In this document: in pieces, positions 5,090 through 40,419 of the stretch
Numbering within the stretch: position 1 is the stretch's first letter
How the letters are laid out: the number at the start of each line of letters is the position of its first letter
Assembly: GCA_006226565.1 (NCBI GenBank)
Contig: SBGO01000356.1
Coordinates: 748 to 64,747 of the forward strand
Source: Deltaproteobacteria bacterium
GTDB lineage: Bacteria; Myxococcota_A; UBA9042; PHBI01
Direction of reading: 5' to 3'
DNA: 64,000 nucleotides
Program-made: the position numbers and the translations under genes
Notes under the pieces: model-generated
Told to the model about the DNA's origin: nothing
The model's database searches: none
The model's input: only the letters and a program-made list of their open reading frames with translations

Positions 5090-5166
5090 GCGCGGTTAGC
5101 TCAGCTGGATAGAGCGTCGGCCTCCGGAGCCGAAGGCCACAGGTTCGAATCCTGTACCGCGCACCA
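5090..5166 (+). tRNA. tRNA-Arg (anticodon CCG), 77 nt including 3' CCA
   Basis: Cloverleaf folded by hand: acceptor GCGCGGT/ACCGCGC, D-stem GCTC/GAGC, anticodon stem TCGGC/GCCGA with loop CTCCGGA, T-stem ACAGG/CCTGT, T-loop TTCGAAT. Confidence 0.9.
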
Positions 5167-6493
5167 ACTCGAAGCCGCCTTGGACAACGGTCCCCGTGAC
5201 CCCGTCGAAGGCGGCTTTTTCCGTGTTGGGGGCCCCTGTCTCCAAATCGTCTCCAAAGGTCGTCTCGGAGCCGACGGCGGCGCGGGCCTGCGCGACCTGC
5301 TCCGGCGACTCGGCGACGGCGGCCTCGGCGAAGAAGCGGAGGCGGTTGATCTCCTCGCCCAGGTAGTCGTCGCTCAGGTGCGAGTACAGGTCGATCGTGG
5401 TCTGGATGTCCTTGTGCCGCAGGACGCGCTGGACGAAGGCCAGGGACGCGCCGCGCATGACGAGGATCGACGCCGTCGTGTGCCGGAGGTCGTGCCACCG
5501 GATCGGGCGGACGTTGGCCTTGGGCCAGAGGCGGTGCCCGTGGACCGGGCAGCGGCGGAGGCGGTTGTCGGCGTGGGTCTCGGCGTGCTTGCAGCCCTTC
5601 TTGCGGCAGACGTGCGTGTAGCTGTCGGCGAGGCCGGCGCGGCCGAGGGCGCGGCGGACGACGTCGCAGAGGTCGGCGTCGCGGCGGAACGGGGAGCCGT
5701 CGGGCTGGGCGAAGACGAGGGCGCCGGGCGAGGCGTCGAGGGCGGCGCGCAGGAAGGGGACCAGCTCGTCGGCGATGGGGACGACGCCGTGGTGGCCGTC
5801 CTTGGTGACGGCGCGGTCGTGTGAGCCGCGGATGTAGATGCGGCGGGCCTCGAAGTCGATGTCCCGGCGCTTGAGGGCGAACAGCTCGCCTTTCCGCATG
5901 CCGGTGTAGATGGCTGTCGCGGCGAGCCACCGGTGGTGCGGCTCCATGACGGCCAGGACGGGCGCGACCTCGTTCGGGCGCAGGTAGGTCGGTGGGCGCT
6001 TGGAGACGCGCCGCCGAGTGACCTTCGCGACCGGGCTCACGCCGTGTACGCGGCCGACCTTCGCGGCGGCGTTGAACGCCCGCGACAGGAAGTTCCGTAG
6101 GTGGTTCACCGTCTGCGGGCTCAGGCCCTCGCGGTCCTTGCCGCGCAGGTAGCGCTCGATGACGGCCGGGGTCAGCTCGCGCAGCGGGAGGTCCCAGAGC
6201 TTCGCCGACGCCAGGTGCTTCTGAATCGTCCTCCGGTTGCTCTCGTCCGCCGCGAGCGAGGCGGACACCTCGTCGAGCCACCACTCCATGAGGTCGCCGA
6301 CGGTGTCCTGCGTCTTCTGCGGCAGGGGCTCGAGCCCCTCGCGCTGCCGGTCGGCGTGGAGCTGCAGCTCGGCGGCCATCCGCTCGGCGTCCACCTTGCG
6401 CTTGGCGAGGCGGACCTCCTTCCACCGGCCGTCGGAGCCCTTGTACTTCCCGTACCAGCCGTCGCGGCCCTTCTTCTTGAACACGGTCGTCAT
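5096..6493 (-). CDS. int: Tyrosine-type site-specific integrase (phage integrase family); C-terminal codons run through attL/tRNA sequence
   Basis: Start MTTVFKKKGRDGWYGKY at 6493; C-terminal catalytic region ...WHDLRHT...IDLYSH...; ORF reads toward tRNA. Confidence 0.85.
   Translation of the reverse strand: MTTVFKKKGRDGWYGKYKGSDGRWKEVRLAKRKVDAERMAAELQLHADRQREGLEPLPQKTQDTVGDLMEWWLDEVSASLAADESNRRTIQKHLASAKLWDLPLRELTPAVIERYLRGKDREGLSPQTVNHLRNFLSRAFNAAAKVGRVHGVSPVAKVTRRRVSKRPPTYLRPNEVAPVLAVMEPHHRWLAATAIYTGMRKGELFALKRRDIDFEARRIYIRGSHDRAVTKDGHHGVVPIADELVPFLRAALDASPGALVFAQPDGSPFRRDADLCDVVRRALGRAGLADSYTHVCRKKGCKHAETHADNRLRRCPVHGHRLWPKANVRPIRWHDLRHTTASILVMRGASLAFVQRVLRHKDIQTTIDLYSHLSDDYLGEEINRLRFFAEAAVAESPEQVAQARAAVGSETTFGDDLETGAPNTEKAAFDGVTGTVVQGGFELVRGTGFEPVAFGSGGRRSIQLS
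5120..5166 (+). repeat. attL: 47-nt copy of tRNA-Arg 3' part (direct repeat with 40372..40418)
   Basis: Exact 47-nt identity read in sequence. Confidence 0.75.
5171..5224 (+). terminator. Terminator-like hairpin downstream of tRNA (AAGCCGCC...GGCGGCTT followed by TTTTCC)
   Basis: Inverted repeat plus T-run read in sequence; loop unusually long. Confidence 0.35.
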
Positions 6494-6726
6494 CGGTCGC
6501 CCCTGCGGAGCGGGATCACGGCTCCGGCGTCGCTCTCGCTCCCACCCCGAGCGTACTCGACGACCTCGGCCGGGTCGAACCTGAGGTGCCCTCCGAAACG
6601 CAGATGGGGCAGATCGCCGCGTGCAGCGCGCTCGTAGACCCAGCTCCGGCTCACGCGCAGGTACTCCGCGACCTCGGTGGCCGTCCACAGCCGGGCCGAG
6701 CTCACAGGCATCGTCTTGGTCGTCAT
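6490..6726 (-). CDS. AlpA/excisionase-family HTH DNA-binding protein
   Basis: Start MTTKTMPVSS... with GGGAGGAAG RBS; ATGA overlap with int; HTH TEVAEYLRVSRSWVYERAARGDLP. Confidence 0.7.
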   Translation of the reverse strand: MTTKTMPVSSARLWTATEVAEYLRVSRSWVYERAARGDLPHLRFGGHLRFDPAEVVEYARGGSESDAGAVIPLRRGDR

Positions 6727-6928
6727 CGTCTTCCTCCCTGGCTGGTATGATTGTCGTGCCGCCGCGATGTGGTTGGACCGCGTCGTTGCGGCGCCCAAAG
6801 TTGGTTCCTCGGGTGCTTGAACGGAGCGCTCTGCTCTCGTCCTAGATTTGGCCTCGAGCGCGACCACCGTGTCTGGTCCTGCTCGTACTCGCGCTCGTTA
6901 TTCGGTCCGGCGGCTCTGGTCTCTTCAG

Positions 6929-7190
6929 CTACCCTGCTACCCGCACTACTCCCGCAAGGGACGCAGGAATTCCTCCGTATGCTCGGCAGGTTGCACGCGG
7001 TGCTACCCCTGCTACCCCGCTGGCGCGGTCCACCCCCACCCGTCAAGGGGTCTTCTTCGTTCCGACAAGGTAGATAGGTAGGTGTTCTCTCAAGTAGGGG
7101 TAGTAGGGGTAGTAGATAGAGCGGCAGAGCCGTCGTGGTCGGGATCGTCGGCGCATACCCCTGCGGGTAGTCGCCCGGTAGCAGGGGGAG
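6929..7190. repeat. Iteron-rich non-coding region (tandem TGCTACCCC x2 near 7001-7018; inverted GTAGGGGTA x2 near 7094-7111; further CTACCC/GGTAG units) - putative replication origin of the island
   Basis: Direct and inverted 9-bp repeats read in a lower-GC gap immediately 3' of the DUF927/primase module. Confidence 0.4.
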
Positions 7191-7194
7191 CGCT

Positions 7195-9174
7195 CTAATC
7201 ATTGTCGTCGTCCGGCCATAGACGCCTGGCGTCCACGACCACGACGCTGCGGCGTCTGCCGTGGATGGAACGCTGGACGCTGAACTTGCCGAGGCGGTGT
7301 TGCAGAAGAACACCGCTGTCACGCCAGTCGCGCATGAGTCCTTCGTACGCGAAGCCCTCCAGCAGCACGCGCTCGTGCAATGCGCGGGTCGGAAACGCGA
7401 CCCAGCCCTCCTCCTTGTGGTGCCATGCGATGATGTCGCGTTGCTCTGCGTTTGCTGTCCTGCTCGAGGCGTCCGCGACCTTGTGCGGATTCTCGTCGAC
7501 CCAGCTCGCGACGAGCTCGAGCCCCCGCGCGGCACCGCCGGCATCGTCAATGTCGTTGACGATGCTCGGCCATAGCGCGGTCCATGGCTCAGGGATCGTC
7601 CACCGGCCGTCCGAGTCATCGGGGAGGCTCAGCGCGCGCTCGGCGAGCCGCAGCGTCAGCTCCAGCACCGCCCGGTACCGGACCATGCGTGTTTCCTGAG
7701 AGGACTTCACGTTGGCGAGCAGCGACGACAGGATCTCTTCATACATCTCGGCCAACTCTGCGTCGCCAATCGTCATCATGTGCTGGACGAGGAGCGGCCC
7801 GGCGTGTCCGAAATTCGACTGGAGCGCCACCTCGACCTCAGCGATCAGACCGCGCGCAACCGGCACGTCGAGGCCGTCGAAGGGCGAGCCTTCGACCTCC
7901 ATCGTGCGGGTGCGCTCCCCGCCACCCTCGCTGAAGCTGACCGCAGGGGCTTCGCCCGTAGAGATGCACGTCGTCTGCCACGCGCCGGTCTGCCGCACCT
8001 GAGCGTCCGCGGTGCCTCGACCTCGGCCTCGCCCGTTGCCGATCGTCGACAACAGCGCCGGGACTGTCGTCTTGCCACGGGCGTCCTTCGTGTCGTCGAC
8101 GAACAGGGGAAGGTGCCGACGGCGGCCGATGGTCAGCTCAAGGTAGGTGTATGTGCTCGACCACGAGGTGACGAGAGAGTCCGGGCCCATGAACGGCTGC
8201 CCCCAGATCGACGCTGCGTAGCGAAGCGTCGTCGTCTTGCCCACCGAGGTCGTGCCGTGGAAGTCGACCACGAAGCTCGACGCACGAACGCCCAGGCGGA
8301 AGAGCAGCGGCGCCGCGAACGAAACGAGCAGCGCGAGCGTGATCCGCGGGAGGTACTTGACCCGATCGATCGCGTCGCGCCAGCGCCGGAACTCGCCCTC
8401 GGCCCGAAGCCCTTCGACCCAGCCATCCTCCGAAGTCGACTTCAGGCGGACCCAGCCTGCCGATGCCCATGTCGCGGGGTTCTTGTCATCGGGCTCGACG
8501 ATCGCACGCGGGCTGATGACCTTGTTTCCCCAGATGAAAGTCTCCCGATCAGCCCAGCCCATCGCGGTGGCTCCGCGAGCTGCGGGTAGCTCCGAAAGGT
8601 TGGCCTCCTCGTATGCACCGAGGAACTTGACGAGCCCGGCGGCGTTGTCGGTGCGAACCGGCAGCCCGTAGTCGGCGAGTTGCTTGATCAGTCGCGCATC
8701 GGCGAGGACGCTGCGGACCATGACCCGTTGCTGCCAGCCCGTCGCGCCACGCCACGCGAGCACCATGTGGTTGACGCCGGCATCGTCGACGACGCGGCCC
8801 AGCACCTGCACCGGGCACGACAGCACGGGGATCTCCTCGAACTCATAGCCCGCGGAAGGGTCGCCGTCTGTCGACTTCGATTTCGCCTCCCACCGAGCCA
8901 CGCCCCGGTCGCTGACTGCGTATCCCCTTGGCACGACGAGCTTGGGGGCCGGTGCGTCGGGGCATCCGCGTCCGACTCGGACGAGCGACCCATCCCCTAG
9001 ACCACCATCGCCCAAGGCCCCCGAGTACAGCTCGCGACGCGGCACGTTCTTCGCGTTCACGGTGCGATTTGCCATGGCGGCCGGCTTGACCCGGACAGCG
9101 TCCACGTCCGGCGTTGTCCGTTCCGTGTACGTGCCGTCCACAAAGCGATCGGCGTCGTCCCTACTGCTACTCAT
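7195..9174 (-). CDS. DUF927-like P-loop NTPase (phage/plasmid primase-associated helicase-like replication protein)
   Basis: Start MSSSRDDADRF at 9174 (8-nt overlap with upstream primase); Walker A GTTSVGKTT; architecture as in P4/PICI pri-rep modules. Confidence 0.7.
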   Translation of the reverse strand: MSSSRDDADRFVDGTYTERTTPDVDAVRVKPAAMANRTVNAKNVPRRELYSGALGDGGLGDGSLVRVGRGCPDAPAPKLVVPRGYAVSDRGVARWEAKSKSTDGDPSAGYEFEEIPVLSCPVQVLGRVVDDAGVNHMVLAWRGATGWQQRVMVRSVLADARLIKQLADYGLPVRTDNAAGLVKFLGAYEEANLSELPAARGATAMGWADRETFIWGNKVISPRAIVEPDDKNPATWASAGWVRLKSTSEDGWVEGLRAEGEFRRWRDAIDRVKYLPRITLALLVSFAAPLLFRLGVRASSFVVDFHGTTSVGKTTTLRYAASIWGQPFMGPDSLVTSWSSTYTYLELTIGRRRHLPLFVDDTKDARGKTTVPALLSTIGNGRGRGRGTADAQVRQTGAWQTTCISTGEAPAVSFSEGGGERTRTMEVEGSPFDGLDVPVARGLIAEVEVALQSNFGHAGPLLVQHMMTIGDAELAEMYEEILSSLLANVKSSQETRMVRYRAVLELTLRLAERALSLPDDSDGRWTIPEPWTALWPSIVNDIDDAGGAARGLELVASWVDENPHKVADASSRTANAEQRDIIAWHHKEEGWVAFPTRALHERVLLEGFAYEGLMRDWRDSGVLLQHRLGKFSVQRSIHGRRRSVVVVDARRLWPDDDND

Positions 9175-10264
9175 GACCCACCCCCGGTCGGGAGCGGTAC
9201 ACGTCGCAGCGCCGCCCAATCGTGTCGTAAATGCCTTTGAAGTAGCGCTCTCCCGCAGGATCGTTATCGGTGCGCACGACCACGCGCGAACCGCTCGGGA
9301 CGCGTGCGGCGATTTCGGGCGTCCACGAGCCGGCCACGATCCCGAAGACCGCCCACTCCGGCTGCGCGGCCCAGCAGAGGAAATCGATCTCGCCCTCCGC
9401 GATGGCGACATCGAGAGGCGCGGCGTCGTACTGCAAGACGATCCTCGCGCCCTCGTTCGCCATGACGGCCCCCTTCACGGTTGAGCCCCGAGGCGTCGGG
9501 CACTTCAGCCCGTGCGGCGGCGCGGCGTCGAGGCGGCACCAGCGTGCGCGCAGCGTCACCGGGCGCGGACCGCCTCCGTTCCGCGCGTCGTACACGTAGC
9601 CGGGCATGTACAACGGCACCATCAGGCGCCATCCGGTCCGGTGCCACGCGCGACCGGCGTGTTGAGCCCACGGGGGACGCAGGCCACGACGAAGGTCAAC
9701 GAGCGGTGCCCACGGCGGGAGCACCCGCGCCTCGTCCATCACCGTCAACTCGGCGAGCATTGCGTCGCTCACACCACGGCTGCGCAAGTAGGCGAGTACC
9801 TCGGTGTCGTCCCGGAGGGGCTGTCCGACCTGCCAGAGCGCGTCTACCTCAACGAGGGAGAGGCCACAGGGGGAGTCCGGATCGCGCGGTGCCGTCTCCC
9901 GCGGCTTCGCCCCTTGCACCTGCTTCGAGGCCGTCCACGGCGAATCCTGAAACGCCCTGCGACTCAACCCCATGAGATCGGCCGTGCGGCGTACGACCTG
10001 CTTGAAGTCGCGTCGGACATCCAGCCCATCCACGACGGCGACGAGGTCGAACGCGTCCCCACGGGCGTCGCAGCGGAAGCAGTACCATGTTCCTTCGTTC
10101 AAGCTGAACGTCGGTCGTCCGCCCTCCTTGCACTTCATGGGGCAGTAACCGCGCCAGTTCTCGCCGCGAGTGTTCACGAGCCGGACGCCGAGCGCCACGG
10201 CGAGCTCTCGGCAGTCGCAGTGTTCGCGCACCCGTCGCGCGTCGATGTCCGGACGGTCATTCAT
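9167..10264 (-). CDS. DNA primase, CHC2 zinc finger + toprim domain
   Basis: CHC2 motif YCPMKCKEGGRPTFSLNEGTWYCFRCDARGD; toprim VVVRTDNDPAGE. Confidence 0.8.
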   Translation of the reverse strand: MNDRPDIDARRVREHCDCRELAVALGVRLVNTRGENWRGYCPMKCKEGGRPTFSLNEGTWYCFRCDARGDAFDLVAVVDGLDVRRDFKQVVRRTADLMGLSRRAFQDSPWTASKQVQGAKPRETAPRDPDSPCGLSLVEVDALWQVGQPLRDDTEVLAYLRSRGVSDAMLAELTVMDEARVLPPWAPLVDLRRGLRPPWAQHAGRAWHRTGWRLMVPLYMPGYVYDARNGGGPRPVTLRARWCRLDAAPPHGLKCPTPRGSTVKGAVMANEGARIVLQYDAAPLDVAIAEGEIDFLCWAAQPEWAVFGIVAGSWTPEIAARVPSGSRVVVRTDNDPAGERYFKGIYDTIGRRCDVYRSRPGVGHE

Positions 10265-10273
10265 GAGGCACCG

Positions 10274-10468
10274 CTACTCGTCGCCGTGGGTGTAGGCCGC
10301 GCGGCGATGCGACTTCAGCCACTCCTGGACCTCGGTCGGGTCGAACCGCACGGCCCGCGGGCCGAGGTAGACGCAGGGGATGCGTCGACTCCGGACCCAC
10401 GAGTAGAGCGTCGTCACGCTCACACCCAGCCTCTTCGCCATCTCATCGTACCCGAGCAAGTCGTTCAT
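10274..10468 (-). CDS. AlpA-like HTH transcriptional regulator/excisionase family (64 aa)
   Basis: MAKRLGVSVTTLYSWVRSRRIPCVYLG HTH. Confidence 0.7.
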   Translation of the reverse strand: MNDLLGYDEMAKRLGVSVTTLYSWVRSRRIPCVYLGPRAVRFDPTEVQEWLKSHRRAAYTHGDE

Positions 10469-10802
10469 CGTTGAACCTCCTACAGCTCACGAGAACTAGC
10501 TGTACAAGCCGCCGACCGCTGGGTCACCGGGCGCTAAGTAGGCACTTGCCCTGAGGACCTAGCACCCACCAAGCAAGACCCCGCGCGCAAGACGGCGCTC
10601 AGAACGATGCACTGCGGCCTTGGCGATAGCGCGGGGCGGAGCGGTGGGGGGGCTTCGGCTCATGACGAGGGCGCCGAGGCCCCCGAGGCCGTTCGTGCAC
10701 AGGGACCCCTTGTGCGGGCTGCGTCTCGACCCGTCCCACCAATCACACCCTTGCGATACGCGTTCAAGCTCGACATCCTCGGTTCAGACCGAGGAGGAAC
10801 TC

Positions 10803-11861
10803 GTGGACAAGACCGGCGCAGACGACGCCCGCAGGCGTCTCGACGGGGCACAAGCGAGGCTAGATGCCGCTACCCGCCGGCGCTTGGCGCTCGAACTGTT
10901 CAACCACAGCACCGGAATCGGTGTGAAGGCAGAGGAGCTGGCAGCACGGGAATTCCCACTGACGCCGTGTCGGTCGTGGGACATACAGCATGCTTTCAGG
11001 TTCGCTGAGAGCGCCCGCAGCCGATTCATCGCCAGTGTGAAGGAATTCGAAGCCTCCAAGCGTCAGCTCGGCCGACTCGCGGGTGTCAAGCAATTGCTGG
11101 CCGATGTCGTGATGGACACCGAACCCGCGAGGGCCCACAGCGACGCCTGGACGACGGGGTGGCCGACGCTCAAGATCCACCACGCAGTCAAGCGGCTCCA
11201 ACATGAGTTGGCGAGGGTCGACTCCGAGGTCGTCGAAGCGGTGGCGTCACTGAACTGGCTCAACCATCGCGGCAACGTCGCGCGGCCGTTTGAGCCGGAT
11301 GTGGTGTTCCGCCGAGAGCTCGTGCGATGGCTCCTCGTCGTCCGCAGGGGACAGGCGATCGGGAGGGTCGACGCCTCGAAGCTGTGGAATACGCCCCCCC
11401 CGGCGGGCTTGGAGTCCGTCCCAACCTGGGCGGTCGCCGCGGAGACGAGCGTCGAGGACTTGGCGCGCCCCCACTGGCCTAGCCTGGCAACCGTCGATAG
11501 CGCTGGAGATATTCACCCGGAGTCGTTCAAGGCGATGCAGTACGAGGCTTTGAGGCGGCGCGTCGTCACCGAACAGCGACCTGGTGCATGGTTGACGCAG
11601 GAGGACGTGGCGTTGCTCCTCATCGCCGCGGACGTCGAGAAGGCGAGGCTGAGCGATGTATGCGAGGCTGTGCGACGCGAGTGGCGGGCCATCAAGGCGC
11701 GTGCATTCGAGGCCGAACAGACACCTGAGCGCATCAAGCCGCTGCTTCGCATCCAGCCCCGTCTGGAGCGCGGGCTGGCCAAGGAAAGTCGGAACCCGGT
11801 TCCTGATTCGCGCAATGGGACGGTGGGCATCGCAGCGGACACGTGTGCTGCCGAAGATTAG
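10803..11861 (+). CDS. Hypothetical protein (352 aa), first gene of a two-gene helicase module
   Basis: GTG start with GAGGAGGAA 5 nt upstream inside ORF 10620..11861; stop abuts ATG of next gene; lower GC3 than flanks. Confidence 0.5.
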   Translation: MDKTGADDARRRLDGAQARLDAATRRRLALELFNHSTGIGVKAEELAAREFPLTPCRSWDIQHAFRFAESARSRFIASVKEFEASKRQLGRLAGVKQLLADVVMDTEPARAHSDAWTTGWPTLKIHHAVKRLQHELARVDSEVVEAVASLNWLNHRGNVARPFEPDVVFRRELVRWLLVVRRGQAIGRVDASKLWNTPPPAGLESVPTWAVAAETSVEDLARPHWPSLATVDSAGDIHPESFKAMQYEALRRRVVTEQRPGAWLTQEDVALLLIAADVEKARLSDVCEAVRREWRAIKARAFEAEQTPERIKPLLRIQPRLERGLAKESRNPVPDSRNGTVGIAADTCAAED

Positions 11862-17413: not shown

Positions 17414-17440
17414 GCCTTCTCGCCTCCGTCGTGGAGTTCG

Positions 17441-18682: not shown

Positions 18683-19494
18683 CGGTCGGTCTCCTTGCGT
18701 TTCGCGCTGAGATTGATCGCGGCGATTGGGCTGTGCTGCGACGGCTTCCGTGGATTGTCGTTCTTGGGAATGGAGACGTAGCGCGCTGGGTCTTTCGTGA
18801 CGTGTTGGGTCGCCCCCCTGAACGTCAGCTCCGGGTAGCCTTCGTCACGTCCATCGATAGCAAGACGCTGGATTCGCGCCAGGACATACCCGAACGCCTC
18901 GCGGGTGAGTTTGATCTTTGGAAATCCCGTGCCCGTGCCCAACTCCCGGCGTGCATCTTTTCCATAGATGCAGAACAGCCGCACCAGATTGACCGGGTGC
19001 TCCGTGGGCTCCGAGTATACTGCGTTCAGCCAATCGAGCCCGGCCGTGAGTCCCTTTGCTGCGTCCTGGACAAGCAGGAGAGCGTTCTCGATTCCCCTAA
19101 TAATCTCGAGCGCCGCTTCCGCCAGCTCTTCGGCACGCGTCGCTTCGATCTTCGCGACCGAGATGGTATCCAAGACCGTCAGATTCCATCGGCTCTCCCG
19201 CTCTTCATGCATCTCAACGCAGCCGAATGTTATCCGTGGCGGCCTGTACTCGAAGAAGCACTGTTCCCGCTCGGCGATCTGGCGCAGGTTCTTTCCTAGG
19301 TCCCGCCGCAGGTCCTCGGCCCGCTGCGAAGCGTCCGAGATCCAGCCATTCACGACTCCATCTGGAATGCCGAGAGCTTCTTGGACCCTGCGCGCGGCGC
19401 CCTCGAATCCAGAGACGTCACCCCGCTCCTTGAGAGCTTCCAAGGCAGACGCAACTTCATCGGTCTTGCGCGAGAAATCGACGGAAACGCGCAT
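18679..19494 (-). CDS. Hypothetical protein (271 aa), first gene of the BrxD-like/helicase module
   Basis: Start MRVSVDFSRKTDEV inside ORF 18679..19665; coupled to next gene. Confidence 0.55.
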   Translation of the reverse strand: MRVSVDFSRKTDEVASALEALKERGDVSGFEGAARRVQEALGIPDGVVNGWISDASQRAEDLRRDLGKNLRQIAEREQCFFEYRPPRITFGCVEMHEERESRWNLTVLDTISVAKIEATRAEELAEAALEIIRGIENALLLVQDAAKGLTAGLDWLNAVYSEPTEHPVNLVRLFCIYGKDARRELGTGTGFPKIKLTREAFGYVLARIQRLAIDGRDEGYPELTFRGATQHVTKDPARYVSIPKNDNPRKPSQHSPIAAINLSAKRKETDR

Positions 19495-27042: not shown

Positions 27043-27050
27043 CGTTCACC

Positions 27051-29828: not shown

Positions 29829-30138
29829 CCCAGATTCGCTCCTAGGTGCTGCACGAGGCGGCGGTCCTTTCAGCCTACTCGACGCGATAGCGGGCGAGCA
29901 CTTCGACCGTCTTGAGGGACGCCGTCACGTGCTCTGATATCGTCCGCCCGACAGGCGAACCGTGCGGTGACGTGCGTAGCCATTCTTGTCAGCGTTGTCG
30001 TAGTACATGAGAAGCTTCTCGTCTTCTTGGGTGCACATTGTCGGGGAGCTTCTCGGCGCCCTTGACGAACGTACCGTCGTCACGTTCCTGCCAGCATGCC
30101 TTTGAAGCCCGCCCGCGCCAGTAGTTCCGGCTGACTAC

Positions 30139-32067
30139 TCATCCCGACTTCTCCCGTAGGTGCGGCGCGAGGCGGTAGTTCGACTCATCGTGATCGATCA
30201 GGACTTGAAGCAGAAGGTAGTCGATCGCCCTGACTAGAGTCTCGAGGTCGAGACCCGTCTGTGACTCAAGGGCCGAGAGGGTAGCATTAGGGGTATTGGC
30301 GACCGCATTCAGCACAGCGGCCTGCTGCTGGGTCAGATGCACTCCTACCCGCGACTTCCATGCACTATCGACGTCGAGTGCGCCTTCCGACCAGTCTAGT
30401 GTTAGTGTGAAGGTGTTCGCGTCCTTGTCGCTCTCAAATACTGGTGACCGTCGCTTGGCCTGCTGGCAGGCGCGGTGGACGGCCCGGATTCCAGAACCCG
30501 ATATCTCGGCAAAGCCGAGCAAACGCAGCGCGCGTGCGATCAGCGGGTTGCGCGATTGGGTCTTGCCTCCGTCGAGCAGCCTATCGGTGGCTACAAGCGA
30601 GTAGCCCATGTTCGAGACGACCATCTTCGTCGCGTGAATCTCGATGTGACCGGCAGCCCTCGTGTCCTGATAGTCTTGGTGCACGGTCTGGTTCACGAAG
30701 ATCTCGCGAAGCGTGAGGTAGTCGAGCGAACCTTCGGTCTTGCGAAGGTCCTCAGGCACCACCTCGCGCATTCCGGTCTGCTCCGCGAAGAATCTCACGG
30801 CACGCTTGAGCGCCTCGAGGATGTTCGCGGATTCGACGATATCTCGCCTCGACGGCCGCATCGTATCGGGGTCAATGACGCGCAGGTCGAGCACGTCCCG
30901 CTGAAGCTCGGATCGAACCGTCGACGGGCGGCCGAAGAGTAGCCTGAGCTGGCGCCGCTCGTCGGGCTCGACGTGACGCCGTCCGTCAAGAAGACGATTG
31001 CCTATCGTCGCATGGGCGTCGGTTGTCCCCGGCTCGAGGAGTCCAGCGAACCACTTGACAGTCGTTGGCTCGAAGGCTTGCCAGTCTACGAGTCCGTCAT
31101 GGCGGCGCCCGCTCTCTTCGATGTGCTCTCGGATGGTCGCCCATTCGCTGGCGAGGTGTCGGCCGTCGATGAGGATGACTGTGTCGGGTACCCGCCGAGC
31201 CCCCGCGAGGAGTTGCCGCGTCGACTCCGCTATGCCGTCGCTCCGGCGCTGCTCACTTCCGTCGAGCGTGCAATAGCGGACCCTCGGTCCGTCAACTGCA
31301 TCAAGGAAGAGCAGCGCGAAGTTCTGCCTGTCTTGATCAATCCCCCAGATCAGCCAGGGGGGAAGCTGAAGGCAACTCTTGTTGACCGCGATGTACGGCG
31401 TGCCGGTCTCCCCGACTCCGCCCGTCTGGTGTTCGACCTTGATGGATTCGGGTGCTGGGTCCGACGACTCACCCATTAGGAGCAGACGACGGACCACGAG
31501 AGCCTCGCGAGTCCACTGCTGGTCTTCGACCACGAAGAGCGGCTTCGAAAGGACTGCTTCGACGCCATCGAGCGCTTCAACGAGGAGCGTCGCAGGGGCC
31601 CTTGTGGCCTCGATCGCGGCGGCCTTGGCCTCATCGAGGTTCCGAAGCTCGTGCCCCAGATCGTTGCGAAGTTCGAGCAGCGAGACCAGCGCGCTATCCG
31701 TCTTGCCTCGCAACGTCTCCTTGTTCCGTTTCGTCACCTTGAAGCCCTGGGCGAGCAAGGGCGCGACGGGATGGTCCCCCTTGGCGCCTGCCACTTCTTG
31801 CACAATCGTCAGGAAGTGGCCGAAGGAGAGGTTGCCGCTTACCTCACTGAGCTTGGCCTCCGTCTCGTCGGCTCGCGACGCAAAGGAAGCCATAGCCACG
31901 GCCGCCAGGTATCGGGTGAGGACCTCGGCGGCCTTGAGACAAGCGTTGACGCGTTCGGCGGCTGTCCGCGCACGCAGGACTCGGCCGCACGCGATCGCTA
32001 CTGGCGTCGGGTAGATGAGGCTGCCACGGCGCAGCGGCCACTGTTCGGCTCCGGACTCTGTCATCAT
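30139..32067 (-). CDS. HATPase_c_4/RecG-C-terminal-like protein (NPLIARALRLLGFAEISGSGIRAV) with C-terminal wHTH and N-terminal region carrying HEPN-like RNDLGHE motif
   Basis: Start MMTESGAEQW overlapping brxC stop (TGATG); domain motifs in translation. Confidence 0.65.
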   Translation of the reverse strand: MMTESGAEQWPLRRGSLIYPTPVAIACGRVLRARTAAERVNACLKAAEVLTRYLAAVAMASFASRADETEAKLSEVSGNLSFGHFLTIVQEVAGAKGDHPVAPLLAQGFKVTKRNKETLRGKTDSALVSLLELRNDLGHELRNLDEAKAAAIEATRAPATLLVEALDGVEAVLSKPLFVVEDQQWTREALVVRRLLLMGESSDPAPESIKVEHQTGGVGETGTPYIAVNKSCLQLPPWLIWGIDQDRQNFALLFLDAVDGPRVRYCTLDGSEQRRSDGIAESTRQLLAGARRVPDTVILIDGRHLASEWATIREHIEESGRRHDGLVDWQAFEPTTVKWFAGLLEPGTTDAHATIGNRLLDGRRHVEPDERRQLRLLFGRPSTVRSELQRDVLDLRVIDPDTMRPSRRDIVESANILEALKRAVRFFAEQTGMREVVPEDLRKTEGSLDYLTLREIFVNQTVHQDYQDTRAAGHIEIHATKMVVSNMGYSLVATDRLLDGGKTQSRNPLIARALRLLGFAEISGSGIRAVHRACQQAKRRSPVFESDKDANTFTLTLDWSEGALDVDSAWKSRVGVHLTQQQAAVLNAVANTPNATLSALESQTGLDLETLVRAIDYLLLQVLIDHDESNYRLAPHLREKSG

Positions 32068-35000
32068 CAGCGCTCCACGACGACGCGCACGCGGTTGGCG
32101 TCCTTGCCCTTGGTCAGGTCGGCGACGAAGGCAGCGAAGCGCTCTCTTAGTTCGTCGACCGTACAAGGGACGCCACCGTCCGTGAGCGCGGAGCGGAGCC
32201 GCGCTTCGGTCAACACGACCTTCTCGAGCCCGCTCAGGATCTCCTGAATGGCCTTCACGAAGGCAGGGCTCACCGGGTCGGGCAGGCTGTTGCTCTTGAG
32301 GAAAGCCTCGACGGCGTCACGACCTTCACCGGCGCCGACGAGATTGATGTTGCCGGACACCGTCGGGTCCTGGAGGTTTGCGAGCAGCGTATTCGTCCAA
32401 TTCTGCACCAGGTCGTCGAGCTCGGCGTCGAGCTGACCGATCCGGTCCCCCGCCTTCGTTCCCCCACGCATCGGATCGGCAGGCTCCTCGACGGGGCGGA
32501 ACGTGCAGTGCGGACAGATGGGATCGGCGTCGAGGTCTTGCTTCGTGAGGGCGAAACACGTCTTCAAGCCGAAGAGCGCGTTCTGGAGGTCGCGCAGCTG
32601 CTGGGTTGGCATCATCTCAACGGTCGAGAGTAGCTGGAGTTGCTTGAGACGAGGATCCTGCCCGAGACGTGCTTTGCGCTGGTCGTCGGTCGCTCCTAGG
32701 CGCGCCTGCGCGTGGCTCTTGAGGTAGGCGTCCTGGTAGGCCGTCTTGAGCTCAGCCAGCGCCTGCCCGAGGGCACGCTGGAAACTCGAATCGGCGCGGT
32801 GCTTCGGGCTCGTGATCTTGGCCATCAGCTCGCCGCGTCGCTCCCGCATCTGGTCCACCCAGGGGTGGCCAGCCTCGAGCACGGCCTCTGCCTTACCCAG
32901 GTAGGATGTCGTTGGCCCGACTTGCTGTACGAGCTCTCCCAGCTCCTCGACCTCGCGCACCTGCGCGAGCCCATGCCGCTGTGCTTGGATGGCGGCAACG
33001 TCGTGCGGGAAGCTCTTCAGCTTTCCGGCCGTGTTGAACGCCTGGAGCGACTCCAGGAAGCGCTTCAGATCGCCGAGGCGCTGCCGCCACTCGGTCTGCT
33101 CCTGCTCCGAGAGGATGGGCTTGCCCCACAGCACCATGTCGGCGACGTGGGCGTGGGCGAGCACCGTCTTGTTGACCAGCTCGGCGACCTTGCCCTGGAG
33201 CTGGGTCACCGCGTCGTCGCGCTTGGCCGGGTTGACGATCAGCCCCTTGGGCACGCCGAGCAGGTCGAAGAGCTCCTGCAGCGCACCGAGCGGTAGGTCG
33301 CGCGGGCGCTCGATGTGCTTGAACTGCGCGACGTCGTTCACCGAGAGCTTCGCGAACTGGTCGATGGCCCCAGCGTCGATCTTCTTCCCAGTGATGCTCA
33401 TGACCACGTCGCCGCTGTGGACGAGCCCGGCCAGGACCACGGCGAGGAACTCCGGCTCGAGCCGGAAGCGGCTCCAGTAGTCGACCCCGGCCTGCTCCTG
33501 AACCAGCTCGGAGCGGTTGAGCACCTGGCCTTCGCCCTTGGCGCCGAGCTGCTCGATGATGTGCTTCGCGTAGCGAGACTCGCGCGGTCGAAGCTGGTCG
33601 CCGTCGAGCATCTCGAGCGCGTCGAGAACAGCGGCGCCGAGCTTGCTCTTCACGCTCCCGGCGATCCACCGCAGGGCATCCTGCGCCGCCTGCCCGCGGT
33701 TCGCTCGGGTGATGGGCGTGTCGAAGATCGGATAGCCGGGCGCGGTGTCGGTGAAGTGGGTGGACAACGACACCGCCGCCGCGACGTCGACGTAGTCCCG
33801 AACGCCGCCGCGCGATGGGGCGCGAGCGAAGAGTGTCTGGAGCGCCTCGCCCAGGCTTCGGGCCTTGCCCTGGTACGTGACCTCGTAGACGGTGGTCAGC
33901 TTCTCCTGCAGCCAGCGGGTCATGGTCCGCAGGTGCTCGAGCGCCTTGTCGTCGTAGACCTTCTTGTTGCTGCCTGACGCGGTGGCCGACAGCTCGCGCG
34001 CCCCGGCGTAGAGCTTGAGCGCGCGGTCGAACTCCTCGTCCCGGTGCGTCAGCCGGAAGAAGACCTCGTCGGGCTTGCGCTCGTCCTTGAAGTACGGCGC
34101 TTCGAACGGCTGGATGAAGTAGATGTAGAAGTCGCGGGGCGGCTGGGCGGTGGAGCGCTCGTTGGGGGCGCCGAAGAAGAGATAGCCACTGCGGCCCGCC
34201 TTGCGCTCGCGCCACTCCAGCTCGTGCTCCCAGATGCGGTAGCCGGAGACGTAGGGCGGCGCCTCTGGGTCTTCGAGCACGACGCGGCGCAGACCGTCGA
34301 AGTAGTAGCGATCGAGTTGGGAGTCGCTCAGCGACTCCGCGCGCTTCTCGATGAGCGAGTCGAAGTCGATGTCCTTCTTGAGGTCGAGGTAGTACTGGCC
34401 GTTCTCGCGATTGTAGGAAAGGAACTGCCCGCTGACCGTCTTCACGATCTCGCGGAGCACGGTCTCGACGACGGTCTTGAGGAACTCTGCGTCGCGTTCC
34501 GGTAGCGGCAGGAGCACGCATAGGTCGTCGCGGAGCTCCTCGGCGGTCGCGCCAATGGGGGCGAAGATGTCGCTGGTCGTCAGCCGGTGTACCGAGAGCG
34601 CATGGATGATGCGTAGCGCGGCTGGGCGGTACTGCGGCCGCGTGAACGCCTGCTGGATGCGCGCTTCGACGACATCGGCTTTCTCGATGACATCGCGGAT
34701 CTCCGGGACCGAGCGGAACGACGGGTTGTCCTTCAGGCTCAGCCAGTACGAGTCGTAGGCGATGAGGCCAGGCTCGTTGGCGGGTACGGCCTCCGTGAGC
34801 ATCCGGCGGATGGCCGCGCTCAACGTCTTGAGCACCTCGCGCTTCTCTGCGACGTACACCCGCTCGAAGGTGTCGAGGTAGGCCGGGTGCACCGGGAAGA
34901 GGCGGACGAATTCGTCCATCCGCTCGTTCATCGACCCGTAGAGCGGCGCGAACTGGGTCAGATGCTCGCGCACCAGCGCCTGCTGTCTCGCGTCCTTCTT

Positions 35001-35777
35001 GAGAAGCCGCTCGGCGACGACGTGAGCCACATCCTCGCGAGCGATGCGCATCTGCTCGAAGCGGTCCCTGACGCGTCGGAGGCTGTCCGCAGCGAACTGG
35101 AAGCGCGGGTTGTCGAAGAGGCTCTCCTGGACGCCTGCGATGAAGCGGAAGCGCGAGCCTTTGGCGAACTCTCCGACCGCTCGCAGGAAGTTCAGGTTGC
35201 GCATCAGCTCCTGCTCTCGGTTGGAGCGGAGGTAGTCGAGCAGCTCGTCGAGGACGAAGAGGAGCCCCTTGTCGGGGAACTTCGCCGTGAACGCCGCCAT
35301 CATGGAAGCGAACACGTCCTTGTGGTTCCTGACCTGGTCCTCGGGTGGAACGTCGAAGCGCACGCCATGTTCCGACAGGTGGTCCTGGAGCGTCTCCATG
35401 ACGAACTGGCGAAGCGGCATCGCCGAGTTGATTTCCGCGCGGATGACGAAGAAGCGCCCGGCGACGAGCGATGCCTTGTCCGCCACCTTGGGGTTTGTGA
35501 GCGCGTTCGCGAGGTCGGCGTGCTCCGCGATGGCGGAGATGACCGCCATGAGGTGCGACTTGCCGGTGCCGTAGTTGCCGACGACGAGAAGGCCCTTGTT
35601 GTCGGCCGGGGTCTCGAACTGAAGTTGCGGGAGCACGAGGTCTGCGAGCTGCTCGCCCATCCGGTCGGAGATGACGAAGGTCTCGACGAGACGACGAGCG
35701 CTTGCCGCGCGGTCGGCTTCGCGGAGCTGAACGACGGTCTCGATGGGGTCGAACTGAATGAGGTCCGCGTACTTCAT
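32067..35777 (-). CDS. brxC: BREX BrxC/PglY large P-loop ATPase
   Basis: N-terminal BrxC-like region with GNYGTGKSHLMAVISAI Walker A; 1236 aa; ATGA overlap with brxF. Confidence 0.85.
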   Translation of the reverse strand: MKYADLIQFDPIETVVQLREADRAASARRLVETFVISDRMGEQLADLVLPQLQFETPADNKGLLVVGNYGTGKSHLMAVISAIAEHADLANALTNPKVADKASLVAGRFFVIRAEINSAMPLRQFVMETLQDHLSEHGVRFDVPPEDQVRNHKDVFASMMAAFTAKFPDKGLLFVLDELLDYLRSNREQELMRNLNFLRAVGEFAKGSRFRFIAGVQESLFDNPRFQFAADSLRRVRDRFEQMRIAREDVAHVVAERLLKKDARQQALVREHLTQFAPLYGSMNERMDEFVRLFPVHPAYLDTFERVYVAEKREVLKTLSAAIRRMLTEAVPANEPGLIAYDSYWLSLKDNPSFRSVPEIRDVIEKADVVEARIQQAFTRPQYRPAALRIIHALSVHRLTTSDIFAPIGATAEELRDDLCVLLPLPERDAEFLKTVVETVLREIVKTVSGQFLSYNRENGQYYLDLKKDIDFDSLIEKRAESLSDSQLDRYYFDGLRRVVLEDPEAPPYVSGYRIWEHELEWRERKAGRSGYLFFGAPNERSTAQPPRDFYIYFIQPFEAPYFKDERKPDEVFFRLTHRDEEFDRALKLYAGARELSATASGSNKKVYDDKALEHLRTMTRWLQEKLTTVYEVTYQGKARSLGEALQTLFARAPSRGGVRDYVDVAAAVSLSTHFTDTAPGYPIFDTPITRANRGQAAQDALRWIAGSVKSKLGAAVLDALEMLDGDQLRPRESRYAKHIIEQLGAKGEGQVLNRSELVQEQAGVDYWSRFRLEPEFLAVVLAGLVHSGDVVMSITGKKIDAGAIDQFAKLSVNDVAQFKHIERPRDLPLGALQELFDLLGVPKGLIVNPAKRDDAVTQLQGKVAELVNKTVLAHAHVADMVLWGKPILSEQEQTEWRQRLGDLKRFLESLQAFNTAGKLKSFPHDVAAIQAQRHGLAQVREVEELGELVQQVGPTTSYLGKAEAVLEAGHPWVDQMRERRGELMAKITSPKHRADSSFQRALGQALAELKTAYQDAYLKSHAQARLGATDDQRKARLGQDPRLKQLQLLSTVEMMPTQQLRDLQNALFGLKTCFALTKQDLDADPICPHCTFRPVEEPADPMRGGTKAGDRIGQLDAELDDLVQNWTNTLLANLQDPTVSGNINLVGAGEGRDAVEAFLKSNSLPDPVSPAFVKAIQEILSGLEKVVLTEARLRSALTDGGVPCTVDELRERFAAFVADLTKGKDANRVRVVVER

Positions 35778-36286
35778 GCCGAGTGCTCCTGGGTCGCCGT
35801 CGTCCCGCTGTTGCCGGGGGGGCCGCTGGAAACGACGAGCGCCTGAGGTTGGTCGTAGCGTCGGAATTCGGGATGGTCGGGAGCCGCGTACGTCAGCAAC
35901 GAGCCCATGTATGCACCGCGCCACGCTGTCACGATGGTGCGGTTGCGCGAGAGGCTCTGAAGGAGGCGTAGCGGATCCTGCTTCAGGTCGGGGTGAAAGA
36001 GCATCTCGATGTTGTCGAGGAGGACGGTGTCGCCGGCCTGTTCCTGGACGATGTCATCGACGAGCCTCGCGACCCGAAGCGCACGCTGCTTCACTGTGAG
36101 CTCGAGCAACCGCTCCGAGAGCGCGAGGTTGATATTCACGAGCGGCCAGCTGTTCGCGCTGTGCAAGTCGCGGAACGCGCTGGTCTTTCCAGAGCGTGGT
36201 GGACCGGCGACGATGACGAGCCGATGGTAGAGCTGACTCGCCTTCTCGACTTGCTCAGCGACTAGGTGTGAAAGCGGCGGCGCCAT
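35774..36286 (-). CDS. brxF: Small P-loop ATPase, BrxF-like
   Basis: Start MAPPLSHLV with AGGAGG RBS; Walker A AGPPRSGKTS. Confidence 0.65.
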   Translation of the reverse strand: MAPPLSHLVAEQVEKASQLYHRLVIVAGPPRSGKTSAFRDLHSANSWPLVNINLALSERLLELTVKQRALRVARLVDDIVQEQAGDTVLLDNIEMLFHPDLKQDPLRLLQSLSRNRTIVTAWRGAYMGSLLTYAAPDHPEFRRYDQPQALVVSSGPPGNSGTTATQEHSA

Positions 36287-36561: not shown

Positions 36562-37757
36562 CTATTCGGCCGCCGATACGATGAAGGACACGGTTGACGG
36601 TGGTCGCGCGGGTGCCGTGGCGCGGTCGTTCACAAGCTCGGGGGCGGGGCCGACTGCGCGCGGGTGAGCGGCCGCCCAAGGATCGGGAAGCGGCACGTCG
36701 AGCATGGAATCGGGCCAGCGTCGAGTACAGTCGAGCTGCTGGGCAGTGGCGTCCTTCTCGACCCGATAGAGCTTGCCGATGAGCTGGATGGGCCAGGCAG
36801 CGCGCGGCTCGGTGTCCTTGAGCTGGAAGAACTTCCTTCGGGCGTGCGCCCAGCACCCGACCTCTGACGCCGAGGCGACCTTGCCGTTGAAGAGCTGGTC
36901 GAAGGTGTTGCTGGCGTCGGCCTGGACGTAGCCGGTCCGGCCGGCGAAGAAGCCCCATGGCCCGTCCTCGCCGGTCCCGGTCTTCGCGTACTCGAAGACG
37001 GTCCAGCGGCGGTCGCCGACGTAGCACCACATCGTGCCGCGACGAATGCCCTCGGGATGGTCGCGGTCGAGGACCTTCAAGCCGCTCGCGTCAGTCTGGA
37101 CGAGGTGTGCCGCATGGACGCGCTCGGTGATGCGGCGGACGAGCGGCTCGACGAGGTCGGCGACCGCGGCGACCTGGTCGCTGAGCGTGGACACTGGGAT
37201 GTTGACGCCACGGCGCGCGTAGATGCCTTGCAGGCGGTGCAGCGGCAGGTGGTCCATGTACTTTGAGCACAGGAGTCCGGGCTCGGCGAAGCCGCCTGGG
37301 ACGACCTTGTCGGGGCCGGCCGCGGTCGTGACCCCGTCCTTGCAGTGCGGGCAGGCGTACTTGGCGACGATGTGCCGCTTGACGATGAACTGAGCGGGCA
37401 CGAGGTCGAGCGTCTCGCTGACGTCTCGTCGCCGATGTGCTGGAGCGCGCCGTGACAGGCCGTGCATGTGCGCCCGCCGGCGTCGACGTCGTAGCGATGC
37501 TCGTCGCGCGACAGGTGCTCGGGGAGCTTGCGCCGCTTGGGCTTCCACTTCGGCGGGCCCTCGTCGGTCGGCACGACGCTGCCGGTGTCGTCCTCGTCGA
37601 CCGGCACGTCTTCGTCGATAGGCTCGCTGCTCTCGTCGCCGCCGGCCTGAGCCAACATCAGCGAGAGCTGGGCGCTGTCGACCTTCTCGCTACGTCGACC
37701 GGCGTTCGCGCGCCGCTCGATGAGGAAGCGCAGCTCCAGCTCCGTCTCGCGGCCCAT
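36562..37757 (-). pseudogene. IS66-family transposase (TnpC) remnant, frameshifted near 37440-37550 and 3'-truncated
   Basis: N-terminal zinc-finger part in ORF 37077..37757; DDE part (LPLHRLQ, MWCYVG, GCWAHARRKF) in ORF 36562..37548 in another frame. Confidence 0.7.
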
Positions 37758-39481: not shown

Positions 39482-39682
39482 CTACTTGCTGTCCCCGGTG
39501 TCAAACTCGTCGAACCTGAGGTACTTCGCGGCGTCGGCCGCGAGGAGCAGGATCTCGGCGACCTCTTCGTCGGTCATCTCATCCGGGGGCGCGTCGGTCG
39601 CGGGCCCGCGGCCGCAGACTCGGCAGACGCCGTCCGTGGTCGTGGTCAGGCGATCGAGTCTCTTGCGGTCAGCGCTTCGCAT
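39482..39682 (-). CDS. Hypothetical small protein (66 aa, contains CRVCGRG)
   Basis: ATG MRSADRKRLDR with GGAGGA 4 nt upstream; overlaps end of preceding small gene. Confidence 0.4.
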   Translation of the reverse strand: MRSADRKRLDRLTTTTDGVCRVCGRGPATDAPPDEMTDEEVAEILLLAADAAKYLRFDEFDTGDSK

Positions 39683-39971
39683 GGGGTCCTCCAGCGGTTG
39701 TCGTATCTCGGCTCTCGAGTGCGGCCTCCAGGGCGTCGAGGCGGTCGGCGATCTCGGCGATGTCATGTGCGCGCAAGGCGACGGAGGCGAGTTGGCCGAC
39801 GCAGTTCGCGATCTTGTGGCTCAGCTTGCCGGCCAGCACGTAGCGCGCCATGCGGTGCAGCGACACAGCGACGAGCTTCGGATCGTCCAGGCGGATGCCT
39901 CGCAACTGGCCGGCCGAGAGCACGCGCTCGTCGAGGGGGGGAGGGGGCTCGGGTTTCTCGCGTTGATTCAT
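39669..39971 (-). CDS. Hypothetical small protein (100 aa)
   Basis: GGAGGA upstream; GC3 bias. Confidence 0.4.
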   Translation of the reverse strand: MNQREKPEPPPPLDERVLSAGQLRGIRLDDPKLVAVSLHRMARYVLAGKLSHKIANCVGQLASVALRAHDIAEIADRLDALEAALESRDTTTAGGPHAKR

Positions 39972-40014
39972 GGGCTTGTCATCCTCCGGGCGGCCGGTTT
40001 TCGACCGACTACAG

Positions 40015-40246
40015 TCACCGAGAGCTCCGTGCGACGTACGCGTCGAGGTCGCCTCCGCGGACGCGGATGCTGTTGCTGACGCGCACGCTCGGGAGGTCGC
40101 CGTCCTTCACGAGGCGGTAGACCGTCGCCCGGGAGACCTTGAGCCGATTTGCGACCTCGGCGACGGTCAGGAGGCTCCGTGCTCGGTCATGGACGACGCG
40201 GAGGCCCGACGCATGGGCCGCTCCTGCCCGCCGGCGTGTCTCCAAA
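40015..40246 (-). CDS. xis: Excisionase-family HTH DNA-binding protein (LLTVAEVANRLKVSRATVYRLVKDGDLPSVRV...DLDAYV); start uncertain (TTG/GTG)
   Basis: Strong match to excisionase-family HTH pattern; ORF-track N-terminus is just translated att/tRNA repeat. Confidence 0.55.
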
Positions 40247-40371
40247 TGGTCTCCAAAACCGTTCCCACGAGTCGGGAGATCTGGGACGGACTGGGATCTG
40301 CGGCCTCGCTCAACCTGTTGATTTCGCACGATCTGGGACAGGCTGGGACGGGCTGGTGATGGCGTTGAAGC

Positions 40372-40418
40372 GCCTCCGGAGCCGAAGGCCACAGGTTCGA
40401 ATCCTGTACCGCGCACCA
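40372..40418 (+). repeat. attR: 47-nt tRNA-Arg 3' fragment (direct repeat of 5120..5166)
   Basis: Exact identity read in sequence. Confidence 0.75.
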
Positions 40419-40419
40419 A

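Follow-up and report, generated by a model that had tools for sequence, protein, structure and literature searches.

In myxophage Mx8 the phage attachment site (attP) lies inside the coding region of int, the integrase gene, and integration makes a new int 3' end (PMC6070905). The recombinant int formed in this way is described in the same review as still active after integration, with altered site specificity (PMC6070905), and the title of a further paper states that the C-terminal segment of Mx8 int is dispensable for excision. Some integrases, among them those of Mx8 and SSV, extend across attP, and the filters of Islander allow integrase open reading frames (ORFs) to overlap the fragment of the tRNA gene (tDNA) that marks an island (PMC4383910). 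Here we describe a 35.2-kb element next to tRNA-Arg(CCG), within a 64,000-nt stretch of contig SBGO01000356.1 (referred to below as the window), which we read as an integrated island with an integrase gene of this design and a complete type 3 bacteriophage exclusion (BREX) system among its cargo.

The principle of an attP within int has reportedly been known for Mx8 since 1996, from work ascribed to Tojo in 1996, Magrini in 1999 and Tojo and Komano in 2003, and the integrase/attP module of Mx9 is said to have been described by Julien in 2003. The integrases of both phages are standard integration tools for myxobacteria. In mycobacteriophage BPs, reportedly studied by Broussard in 2013, attP lies within a coding gene and integration alters the C-terminus of the repressor; in this integration-dependent immunity the split gene is the repressor, whereas in the window element it is the integrase. 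P4-like satellites are known carriers of defence hotspots, reportedly described by Rousset in 2022. Like these satellites and other hotspots in integrative islands, the window element combines a conserved integration/replication backbone with a variable defence payload at a tRNA-linked hotspot; it differs from P4-like satellites in that helper-exploitation genes were not seen in it. Each component of the island is of a known kind. What the analysis adds is that the right-end helix-turn-helix (HTH) segment belongs to int, that the integrase family is large and regular, that the arm elements come in pairs and that the tRNA has the look of a hotspot; two side observations are a BrxD/BrxD/BrxHI-like operon headed by a protein without known relatives, and a helicase-amidoligase gene.

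Boundaries of the element at tRNA-Arg(CCG)

The window is part of a 66.6-kb metagenome-assembled (MAG) contig. Coding frames were picked by GC content at third codon positions (GC3) and scanned with Pfam, PADLOC, PHROGs and NCBIfam; the features found are collected in Table 1. ARAGORN placed a single tRNA, tRNA-Arg(CCG), in the window, and Rfam gave no other RNA family in the 64 kb. A first-pass annotation of this DNA had proposed that the last 47 nt of the tRNA recur exactly at the far end of an integrated island. When the two copies were aligned, positions 5120-5166 and 40372-40418 agreed base for base, and one further base, an A, also matched, so that the identity is 48 of 48 nt. The repeat begins at tRNA position 31 and so takes in the anticodon and variable loops, the T-arm, the 3' strand of the acceptor and CCA. 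With up to three mismatches allowed, a 29-mer taken from it matched at exactly these two places, whereas 100 shuffles gave no match, and the two cores (attL and attR) form the only long exact direct repeat between 4.5 and 47 kb. Beyond attR no further degenerate tRNA fragment was found within three mismatches, which gives no indication of islands in tandem.

The composition of the DNA changes at the same positions. GC3 is 0.956 in the left flank and 0.936 in the far right flank, compared with 0.868 in the island backbone and 0.769 in the cargo, and the codon adaptation of island genes to the flanks is about half; the lower GC3 and rarer codons previously noted for the cargo were thus borne out. 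Windowed GC content is 0.58-0.69 within the island and 0.72-0.76 outside, and the shift falls at the repeats.

As also noted before, each copy of the tRNA end is followed by its own terminator-like hairpin, and both hairpins have U-rich tails. Folding was needed to find them, since a simple terminator scan caught part of the attL-side hairpin only and missed the one at attR. The hairpin on the P' arm is island-borne; it stands behind the rebuilt tRNA and overlaps, on the opposite strand, the region coding for the int tail. Next to attR, on its chromosomal (B') side, stands a shortened version of the same design, which is presumably the terminator that the tRNA had originally. The island-side hairpin is homologous to a hairpin that follows the same tRNA in a related locus (L001, discussed below) and, more distantly, to the attR-side hairpin.

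Taken together, the locus has an intact tRNA and a displaced 3' tRNA fragment as direct repeats, an integrase gene inside and beside the tDNA, and a distinct composition. In its intact tDNA, displaced 3' fragment, internal integrase and a size within 2-200 kb it resembles the tRNA/tmRNA islands catalogued by Islander, and we found no difference in kind. The repeat, the intact integrase, excisionase (Xis)-like genes, the primase/helicase module, the compositional break and the defence cargo all support the earlier reading of a tRNA-integrated island.

Table 1. Features of the island and its borders, with positions in the window
Feature	Position	Strand	Evidence
tRNA-Arg(CCG), complete; attL core supplies 3' 47 nt	5090..5166	+	ARAGORN; Rfam RF00005, 72 bits
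int, integrated form, tyrosine recombinase, 465 aa	5096..6493	-	Phage_integrase 2.5e-22, Int_N
attL core, 48-nt identity block, anticodon stem/loop to CCA plus A	5120..5167	+	exact identity with 40372-40419
P' arm terminator-like hairpin	5171..5218	+	-29.6 kcal/mol, z -4.07
P' arm, two GTCTCCAAA copies 11 bp apart; candidate arm-type sites	5238..5257	+	motif count
xis-like HTH_17 gene, 78 aa	6490..6726	-	HTH_17 5e-13; PHROG excisionase
DUF927 primase/helicase-type replication protein	7195..9174	-	DUF927 4.5e-34; phrog_8841 'DNA primase/helicase' 5e-78, nearly full length
CHC2 zinc-finger / Toprim primase	9167..10264	-	Zn_ribbon_DnaG 1.8e-6; PHROG DNA primase families
AlpA-like HTH_17 regulator, head of replication operon	10274..10468	-	HTH_17 2e-12; Phage_AlpA 3e-5
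Unknown protein, 352-413 aa depending on start	10620..11861	+	ORF
SF2 helicase fused to Amidoligase_2, 881 aa	11862..14507	+	Pfam
Four-gene operon beside BREX	14607..19494	-	PADLOC
BrxHI/SngC-like helicase	14607-16148	-	PADLOC SngC 3.5e-59, BrxHI 3.7e-57
Second BrxD/SngB-like ATPase	16202-17413	-	PADLOC BrxD, SngB
BrxD-like ATPase	17441-18682	-	PADLOC BrxD
First gene of four-gene operon, 271-aa protein	18679-19494	-	no family match
69-aa ORF, nuclease and EVE protein	19830..21363	-	Pfam
DUF7669 plus NucS_C-type nuclease	20036-20806	-	PADLOC candidate PDC-S02 2e-21; Pfam
EVE-domain protein	20872-21363	-	Pfam
BREX type 3 operon	21444..36286	-	PADLOC, Pfam; starts refined
brxA	21444-22187	-	PADLOC BrxA 6e-59
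pglZ	22184-24214	-	PADLOC PglZ 4e-211
brxHII	24211-27042	-	PADLOC model PDLC02500 (named BrxHI/BrxHII) E 0
pglXI	27051-29828	-	PADLOC PglXI E 0
HATPase_c_4/MarR-like gene, 642 aa, embedded in BREX operon	30139-32067	-	Pfam
brxC	32067-35777	-	PADLOC BrxC E 0
brxF	35774-36286	-	PADLOC BrxF 3e-55
IS66-family transposase pseudogene, frameshifted, 3'-truncated	36562..37757	-	Pfam
Unknown 346-aa protein, lowest-GC segment	38090..39130	-	no Pfam, PADLOC or PHROG match
Unknown ORF	39482-39971		
Detached 3' segment of attP-form int, linker + HTH_17 (about 40024-40173)	40015..40371	-	HTH_17 1.8e-16
P arm, two GTCTCCAAA copies 11 bp apart; 20/21 nt identical to P' element	40238..40257	+	motif count
attR core, displaced 3' tRNA fragment, not whole tRNA	40372..40419	+	exact repeat match
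Hairpin, chromosomal (B') side of attR	40419..40453	+	-25.0 kcal/mol, z -4.38
PDC-M51 candidate pair outside island beyond attR, thymidylate-kinase-like (B) + B12/radical-SAM (A)	40502..42747	-	PADLOC 4.5e-61, 2e-140

The integrase gene and the attachment site

The integrase gene had been said to abut the tRNA. The two are indeed adjacent, and this description understates their relation, as the ORF overlaps the tRNA and stops within it. The encoded tyrosine recombinase has its catalytic residues (R197, K231, H334-x-x-R337, H360 and Y370). The frame contains no stop past the catalytic domain; it traverses the P' hairpin and then the attL core (...GGFELVRGTGFEPVAFGSGG) and ends in seven tRNA-encoded residues, RRSIQLS*, the TAA at 5096-5098 being formed opposite the tRNA D-arm sequence TTAGCTCAG.

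The annotation had also placed AlpA/excisionase-type HTH genes at both ends of the island. HTH_17 genes were found at these places, but they number three (6490-6726, 10274-10468 and 40015-40200), not two, and the one at the right end is the severed 3' part of int. The stop of the first, xis-like gene overlaps the int ATG (ATGA). At the right end, the ORF at 40015-40419 on the minus strand begins within the attR core, in the same frame as int (LVRGTGFEPVAFGSGG...). When attP was reconstructed by joining 40371 to the core and then to 5167, as in the excised circle, the frame stayed open through an in-frame continuation of 111 codons, and the resulting 576-aa ORF comprises the catalytic domain, a core peptide, a 66-aa linker and HTH_17. 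In DNA of 65-70% GC such open-frame lengths occur by chance a few per cent of the time, and for this reason the idea of a split gene was checked in relatives.

More than 230 homologues of Int were found, at 45-50% identity, the best 120 of which were examined in detail. Among these 120, 45 end in '...SIQLS*', 12 run past it and most of the others end in peptides derived from other tRNAs. Seven of the 120 (P0034, P0043, P0056, P0063, P0093, P0103 and P0107) carry a C-terminal HTH_17 after the core, and the HTH_17 tails of these natural fusions and of Mx9 Int align well with the right-end segment of the window. One fusion, P0043, sits on a phage-like contig that carries a terminase and would represent attP in its free form. 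On a 1.67-Mb contig (L061), tRNA-Arg(CCG) harbours an independent island of 8.5 kb, which encodes an Int 47% identical to that of the window and has a 45-nt direct repeat and the same in-frame HTH_17 ORF at its far end. In IMG/VR, a scan with Int returned only relatives of 21-24% identity. Since the right-end HTH is in frame through the core, the attP-form ORF is restored and the same layout recurs in relatives and in Mx9, the supposed right-end AlpA/excisionase gene is the detached 3' end of int, and attP lies within int. As a separate observation, the fusion P0063 lies on an 82.9-kb contig (L008, positions 10001-11644) with no tRNA nearby, where it adjoins an 81-aa HTH_17 gene, a second integrase and a SIR2/STAND gene.

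The best phage match to the window Int is Mx9 Int (GenBank AY247757), with 32.7% identity over 362 aa (residues 28-389, E 7e-42). The likeness covers the whole arrangement: a catalytic domain with a Cys-rich insert, a tRNA-derived peptide (AWEARALPTEL in Mx9) and then an HTH_17-like tail (LLSVKDVAASLSVSTAKVYQLL...EDLDAYIARA), which is closely similar to window positions 40015-40173. Because the tRNA-derived peptide differs, the target tRNA of Mx9 probably differs as well; we take it to be tRNA-Gly. Mx9 is a complete temperate phage, whereas the window element is without virion genes. Mx8 resembles the element in that its HTH_17 excisionase gene, uoi, overlaps the start of int, as the gene at 6490-6726 does here, and in that a tRNA-like peptide, STGLEPVLLGS, occurs at the equivalent place and is flanked by repeats with 11-bp spacing. 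However, Mx8 Int is only marginally similar (BLASTP E 5e-4), and Pfam gave no HTH_17 in its C-terminal segment. By sequence, then, the window element belongs to an Mx9-like branch of the attP-in-int design.

Far from being an oddity of two laboratory phages, this design is the usual arrangement among more than 230 related integrases, mostly Myxococcota-associated, which would also move non-phage islands. Programs that call genes or detect islands are liable to mis-annotate the far-end HTH as a separate AlpA or Xis gene and to take an overlap of integrase and tRNA for an error. Natural integrase variants with mapped cores and arm sites could extend the myxobacterial toolkit.

Both arms of the element carry a paired motif. 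The sequence TCTCCAAA has four copies in the 64 kb, where 0.48 would be expected; all lie at the island ends, in two pairs with 11-bp spacing, the P' pair 71 nt to the right of the attL core and the P pair 115 nt to the left of the attR core. Related elements have their own versions on both arms (TTTGCTGCA-N2-TTGCTGCA in L061, CTTGTTACA pairs in L008), and the arm repeats of Mx8 comprise an 11-bp-spaced pair and a third copy. Because the arm elements lie within the int reading frame, they also appear as a repeated peptide: the 21-nt elements encode FGD[DH]LET on either side of the core, and in five of eight attP-form proteins a 7-residue peptide stands before the core and again about 45 residues after it. 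The sequence varies between elements yet agrees between the arms of one element, which argues for DNA sites, and the paired 9-mers are likely candidates for arm-type binding sites of the recombinase or Xis. Motifs like ATCTGGGAC near attR were considered and rejected, as they showed no enrichment.

A Cys/His-rich insert (HVCRKKGCKHAE...RRCPVHGHRLWPK) was found at about residues 290-325 of the window Int (5519-5626, minus strand), between the catalytic Lys and HxxR. Mx9 Int and the integrase family at large retain it, and it has the appearance of a zinc ribbon within the catalytic domain.

Proposed mobility of the island and competing explanations

The CHC2/toprim primase and DUF927 protein previously proposed as a replication module were confirmed by both Pfam and PHROG, with the Toprim_2 match in the primase (2e-3) under Pfam's cut-off. 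Phage-type matches in PHROG and Pfam are confined to integration, excision, replication and the helicase/amidoligase gene. Pfam and PHROG scans of the island ORFs with a coding signature gave no terminase, capsid, tail or lysis genes, and those of the island ORFs gave no relaxase, coupling-protein or type IV secretion genes.

We consider it highly probable that positions 5167-40419 (35.2 kb) are an integrated, non-conjugative mobile genomic island that entered the 3' part of tRNA-Arg(CCG) through site-specific recombination by a tyrosine recombinase. The crossover would fall inside the 48-nt identity block, perhaps at the anticodon loop. In the excised circle, int would encode a 576-aa Int-HTH_17 protein promoting recombination of attP with attB. 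Integration would split the gene, leaving the 465-aa Int near the tRNA and the HTH_17 segment 35 kb off at attR, and loss of the HTH_17 tail may, by analogy with Mx8, alter integrase activity and stabilise the integrated state. Excision would use the short Int and the separate Xis-like protein, after which the primase and DUF927 module would replicate the circle. As the island carries no transfer genes, its transfer would depend on a helper, which could be a phage or some other mobile element. The repeats, the reading frames, the domains of the proteins and the conservation of the design throughout the family are established from sequence. We infer present-day mobility from intactness alone; the roles of the HTH_17 tail and of the 9-mers, like the activity of the defence genes, are likewise predicted. 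On this reading an uncultured lineage of high GC content would possess a sharply bounded and apparently intact carrier of a complete BREX type 3 system.

Several observations weigh against this reading. The joins at attL and attR depend on the original assembler, since a k=31 assembly of run SRR8389942 is interrupted exactly at the repeats. The IS66 pseudogene points to some decay of the cargo, and the proposed role of the HTH_17 tail is carried over from Mx8, in which the tail lacks this domain. An empty attB was not found in relatives in two genome scans and one metagenome scan. In L001, moreover, the 68 nt after the tRNA match the island-side (P') hairpin (about 90%) and not the attR-side one; either the L001 hairpin is a remnant of a related element, or the P' arm of the island copies the host terminator. 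A 35,264-nt Logan contig corresponding to 5138-40401 was considered as a circular form of the element and rejected: its ends lie 30 nt inside each repeat, which is how a k=31 graph breaks at a 48-nt repeat, and the contig is therefore uninformative on circles.

The backbone of int, xis, AlpA-like HTH, primase and primase/helicase, without structural genes, would also fit a P4-like or PICI-like phage satellite that excises, replicates itself and is packaged by a helper myxophage, its defence genes forming an accessory hotspot, and the integrase family is common to true phages (Mx9 and the terminase-carrying contig of P0043). We nevertheless judge a satellite unlikely: no capsid-remodelling, packaging or helper-sensing gene was recognised among its ORFs, several of which are of unknown function, a scan of IMG/VR with the DUF927 protein gave no relatives, and 35 kb is large for a satellite of roughly 50-kb myxophages. 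The phage-associated tyrosine integrase, Xis-like genes and replication module could likewise belong to a prophage or an integrative conjugative element. With the structural, lysis, relaxase, coupling and type IV secretion genes all missing from the scans described above, this is hardly credible.

The same repeats could instead be the scar of an old insertion, the element being a fixed and immobile remnant. The IS66 pseudogene, the failure to find an empty site or circle, and the non-mobile defence loci near the same tRNA, both in L001 and past attR, would agree with this. Yet the attR copy, an unconstrained tRNA fragment, is still identical at 48 of 48 positions, and int, xis, both arm elements and the 111-codon attP continuation are all intact. 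Such repeat identity and intactness would not be expected after long decay, and we regard a remnant as quite improbable. It is more improbable still, indeed very much so, that the assembly has threaded into the chromosome a free circular element sharing 48 nt with the host tRNA. The contig is from a MAG, and in the k=31 assembly of SRR8389942 the island is a separate contig of 35,264 nt, but that length is exactly what a 48-nt repeat should give in a k=31 graph, and ordinary reads should, as is generally known, span a repeat of 48 nt. The integrated-form ending RRSIQLS* is, besides, the commonest in the family, and L061 has the same integrated layout within its 1.67-Mb contig.

Across the integrase family, the position of attP between the catalytic and the Xis-like HTH_17 domains might serve as a built-in switch that reports the integration state, in phages and in defence islands without phage genes. 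This is a tentative idea, worth stating though we would not rely on it; if true, it would add to the Mx8 principle that the tail is an HTH_17 domain, that arm elements occur in pairs and that a BREX-carrying island uses the switch. More speculatively, the HTH_17 segment at the far end might be made as a 76-aa stand-alone protein from the TTG at 40245, with the GGAG in the arm repeat standing before it.

Defence cargo and the surrounding locus

BREX type 3 was reportedly described by Goldfarb in 2015, and the gene order of the BREX operon in the window agrees with what we take to be the order of type 3 operons. Type 3 is defined by six components, BrxF, BrxC, PglXI/BrxXI, BrxHII, PglZ and BrxA (Rakesh & Krishnan 2026, PMC12839542). 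All six match strongly in one operon in PADLOC, so that the system is complete, and it is predicted to act in anti-phage defence. Compared with this definition, the window operon has an additional 642-aa HATPase_c_4/MarR-like gene, translationally coupled between brxC and pglXI, its ATG overlapping the brxC stop. A gene related to it (tblastn, 24% identity) sits in the type I restriction-modification (R-M) locus of L001. Genes like this HATPase_c_4/MarR-like one may recur in R-M-like systems as a regulator or sensor.

Beside BREX lies an operon of four genes, two of which encode ATPases matching BrxD (9e-25 and 5e-11) that are 26% identical to each other. The 271-aa product of the first gene (18679-19494) has no TerB or other Pfam domain and no solved structural relative. 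An assignment of this operon to Shango (SngABC) was rejected, as a SngA with a TerB domain is lacking and there are two ATPases instead of one. BrxD and BrxHI as a pair have been ascribed specifically to type 2 BREX (PMC12839542), although here a BrxD/BrxD/BrxHI-like operon adjoins a type 3 system.

The annotation had called nearly all of the cargo defence-related. This was overstated, because matches to PADLOC defence models cover roughly two thirds of the cargo length. The remaining third comprises the helicase-amidoligase gene, unknown genes and the IS66 pseudogene. The helicase-Amidoligase_2 family is widespread, with 870 matches, and occurs both in mobile elements and among ordinary genes; in one mobile-element context (L056) the gene follows an integrase, AlpA and DUF3631 and precedes a GGACT cyclotransferase-like gene. 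The protein encoded immediately upstream in the window has no Pfam, PADLOC or PHROG match. A conserved two-gene defence system made up of this gene, in its 413-aa form, and the helicase-amidoligase was considered and rejected, the partner being absent in three other contexts. In the IS66 pseudogene, LZ_Tnp_IS66 lies in one frame, and zf-IS66 together with positions 12-192 of 284 of DDE_Tnp_IS66 in another.

The search for relatives of the locus gave a single close one. A genome scan with purD returned two relatives only, the sister MAG L001 (purD 91% identical) and L002, the latter without tRNA-Arg. L001 keeps the order curA-purD-hypothetical gene-tRNA-Arg(CCG), and its similarity to the window ends about 70 nt past the tRNA; it continues (12100-21281) with type I R-M genes (M, S and R) and the embedded HATPase-like gene, in DNA of lower GC and with no integrase. 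For the 234-aa protein of the left flank there was no exact record, and a genome scan with it gave no relatives. A metagenome scan with the radical-SAM protein of the right flank gave 40 loci, none beside tRNA-Arg, in which the conserved part is the radical-SAM and kinase pair only.

This pair is the PDC-M51 candidate beyond attR, and its two genes are also adjacent in metagenome loci L017 and L018. The GC3 of the PDC-M51 stretch, 0.844, is intermediate, which suggests an older acquisition. As this candidate defence pair lies outside attR, the defence region is wider than the mobile element. The type I R-M genes at the same tRNA in L001 and the PDC-M51 pair past attR suggest that in this lineage tRNA-Arg(CCG) is a hotspot for defence genes, with the mobile island as its latest layer.

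Farther into the native high-GC flank, positions 52339-62028 of the plus strand encode a protein of 3229 aa that contains beta-helix, NosD and PKD repeats. This giant protein is probably secreted or exposed at the surface, and it is unrelated to the island.

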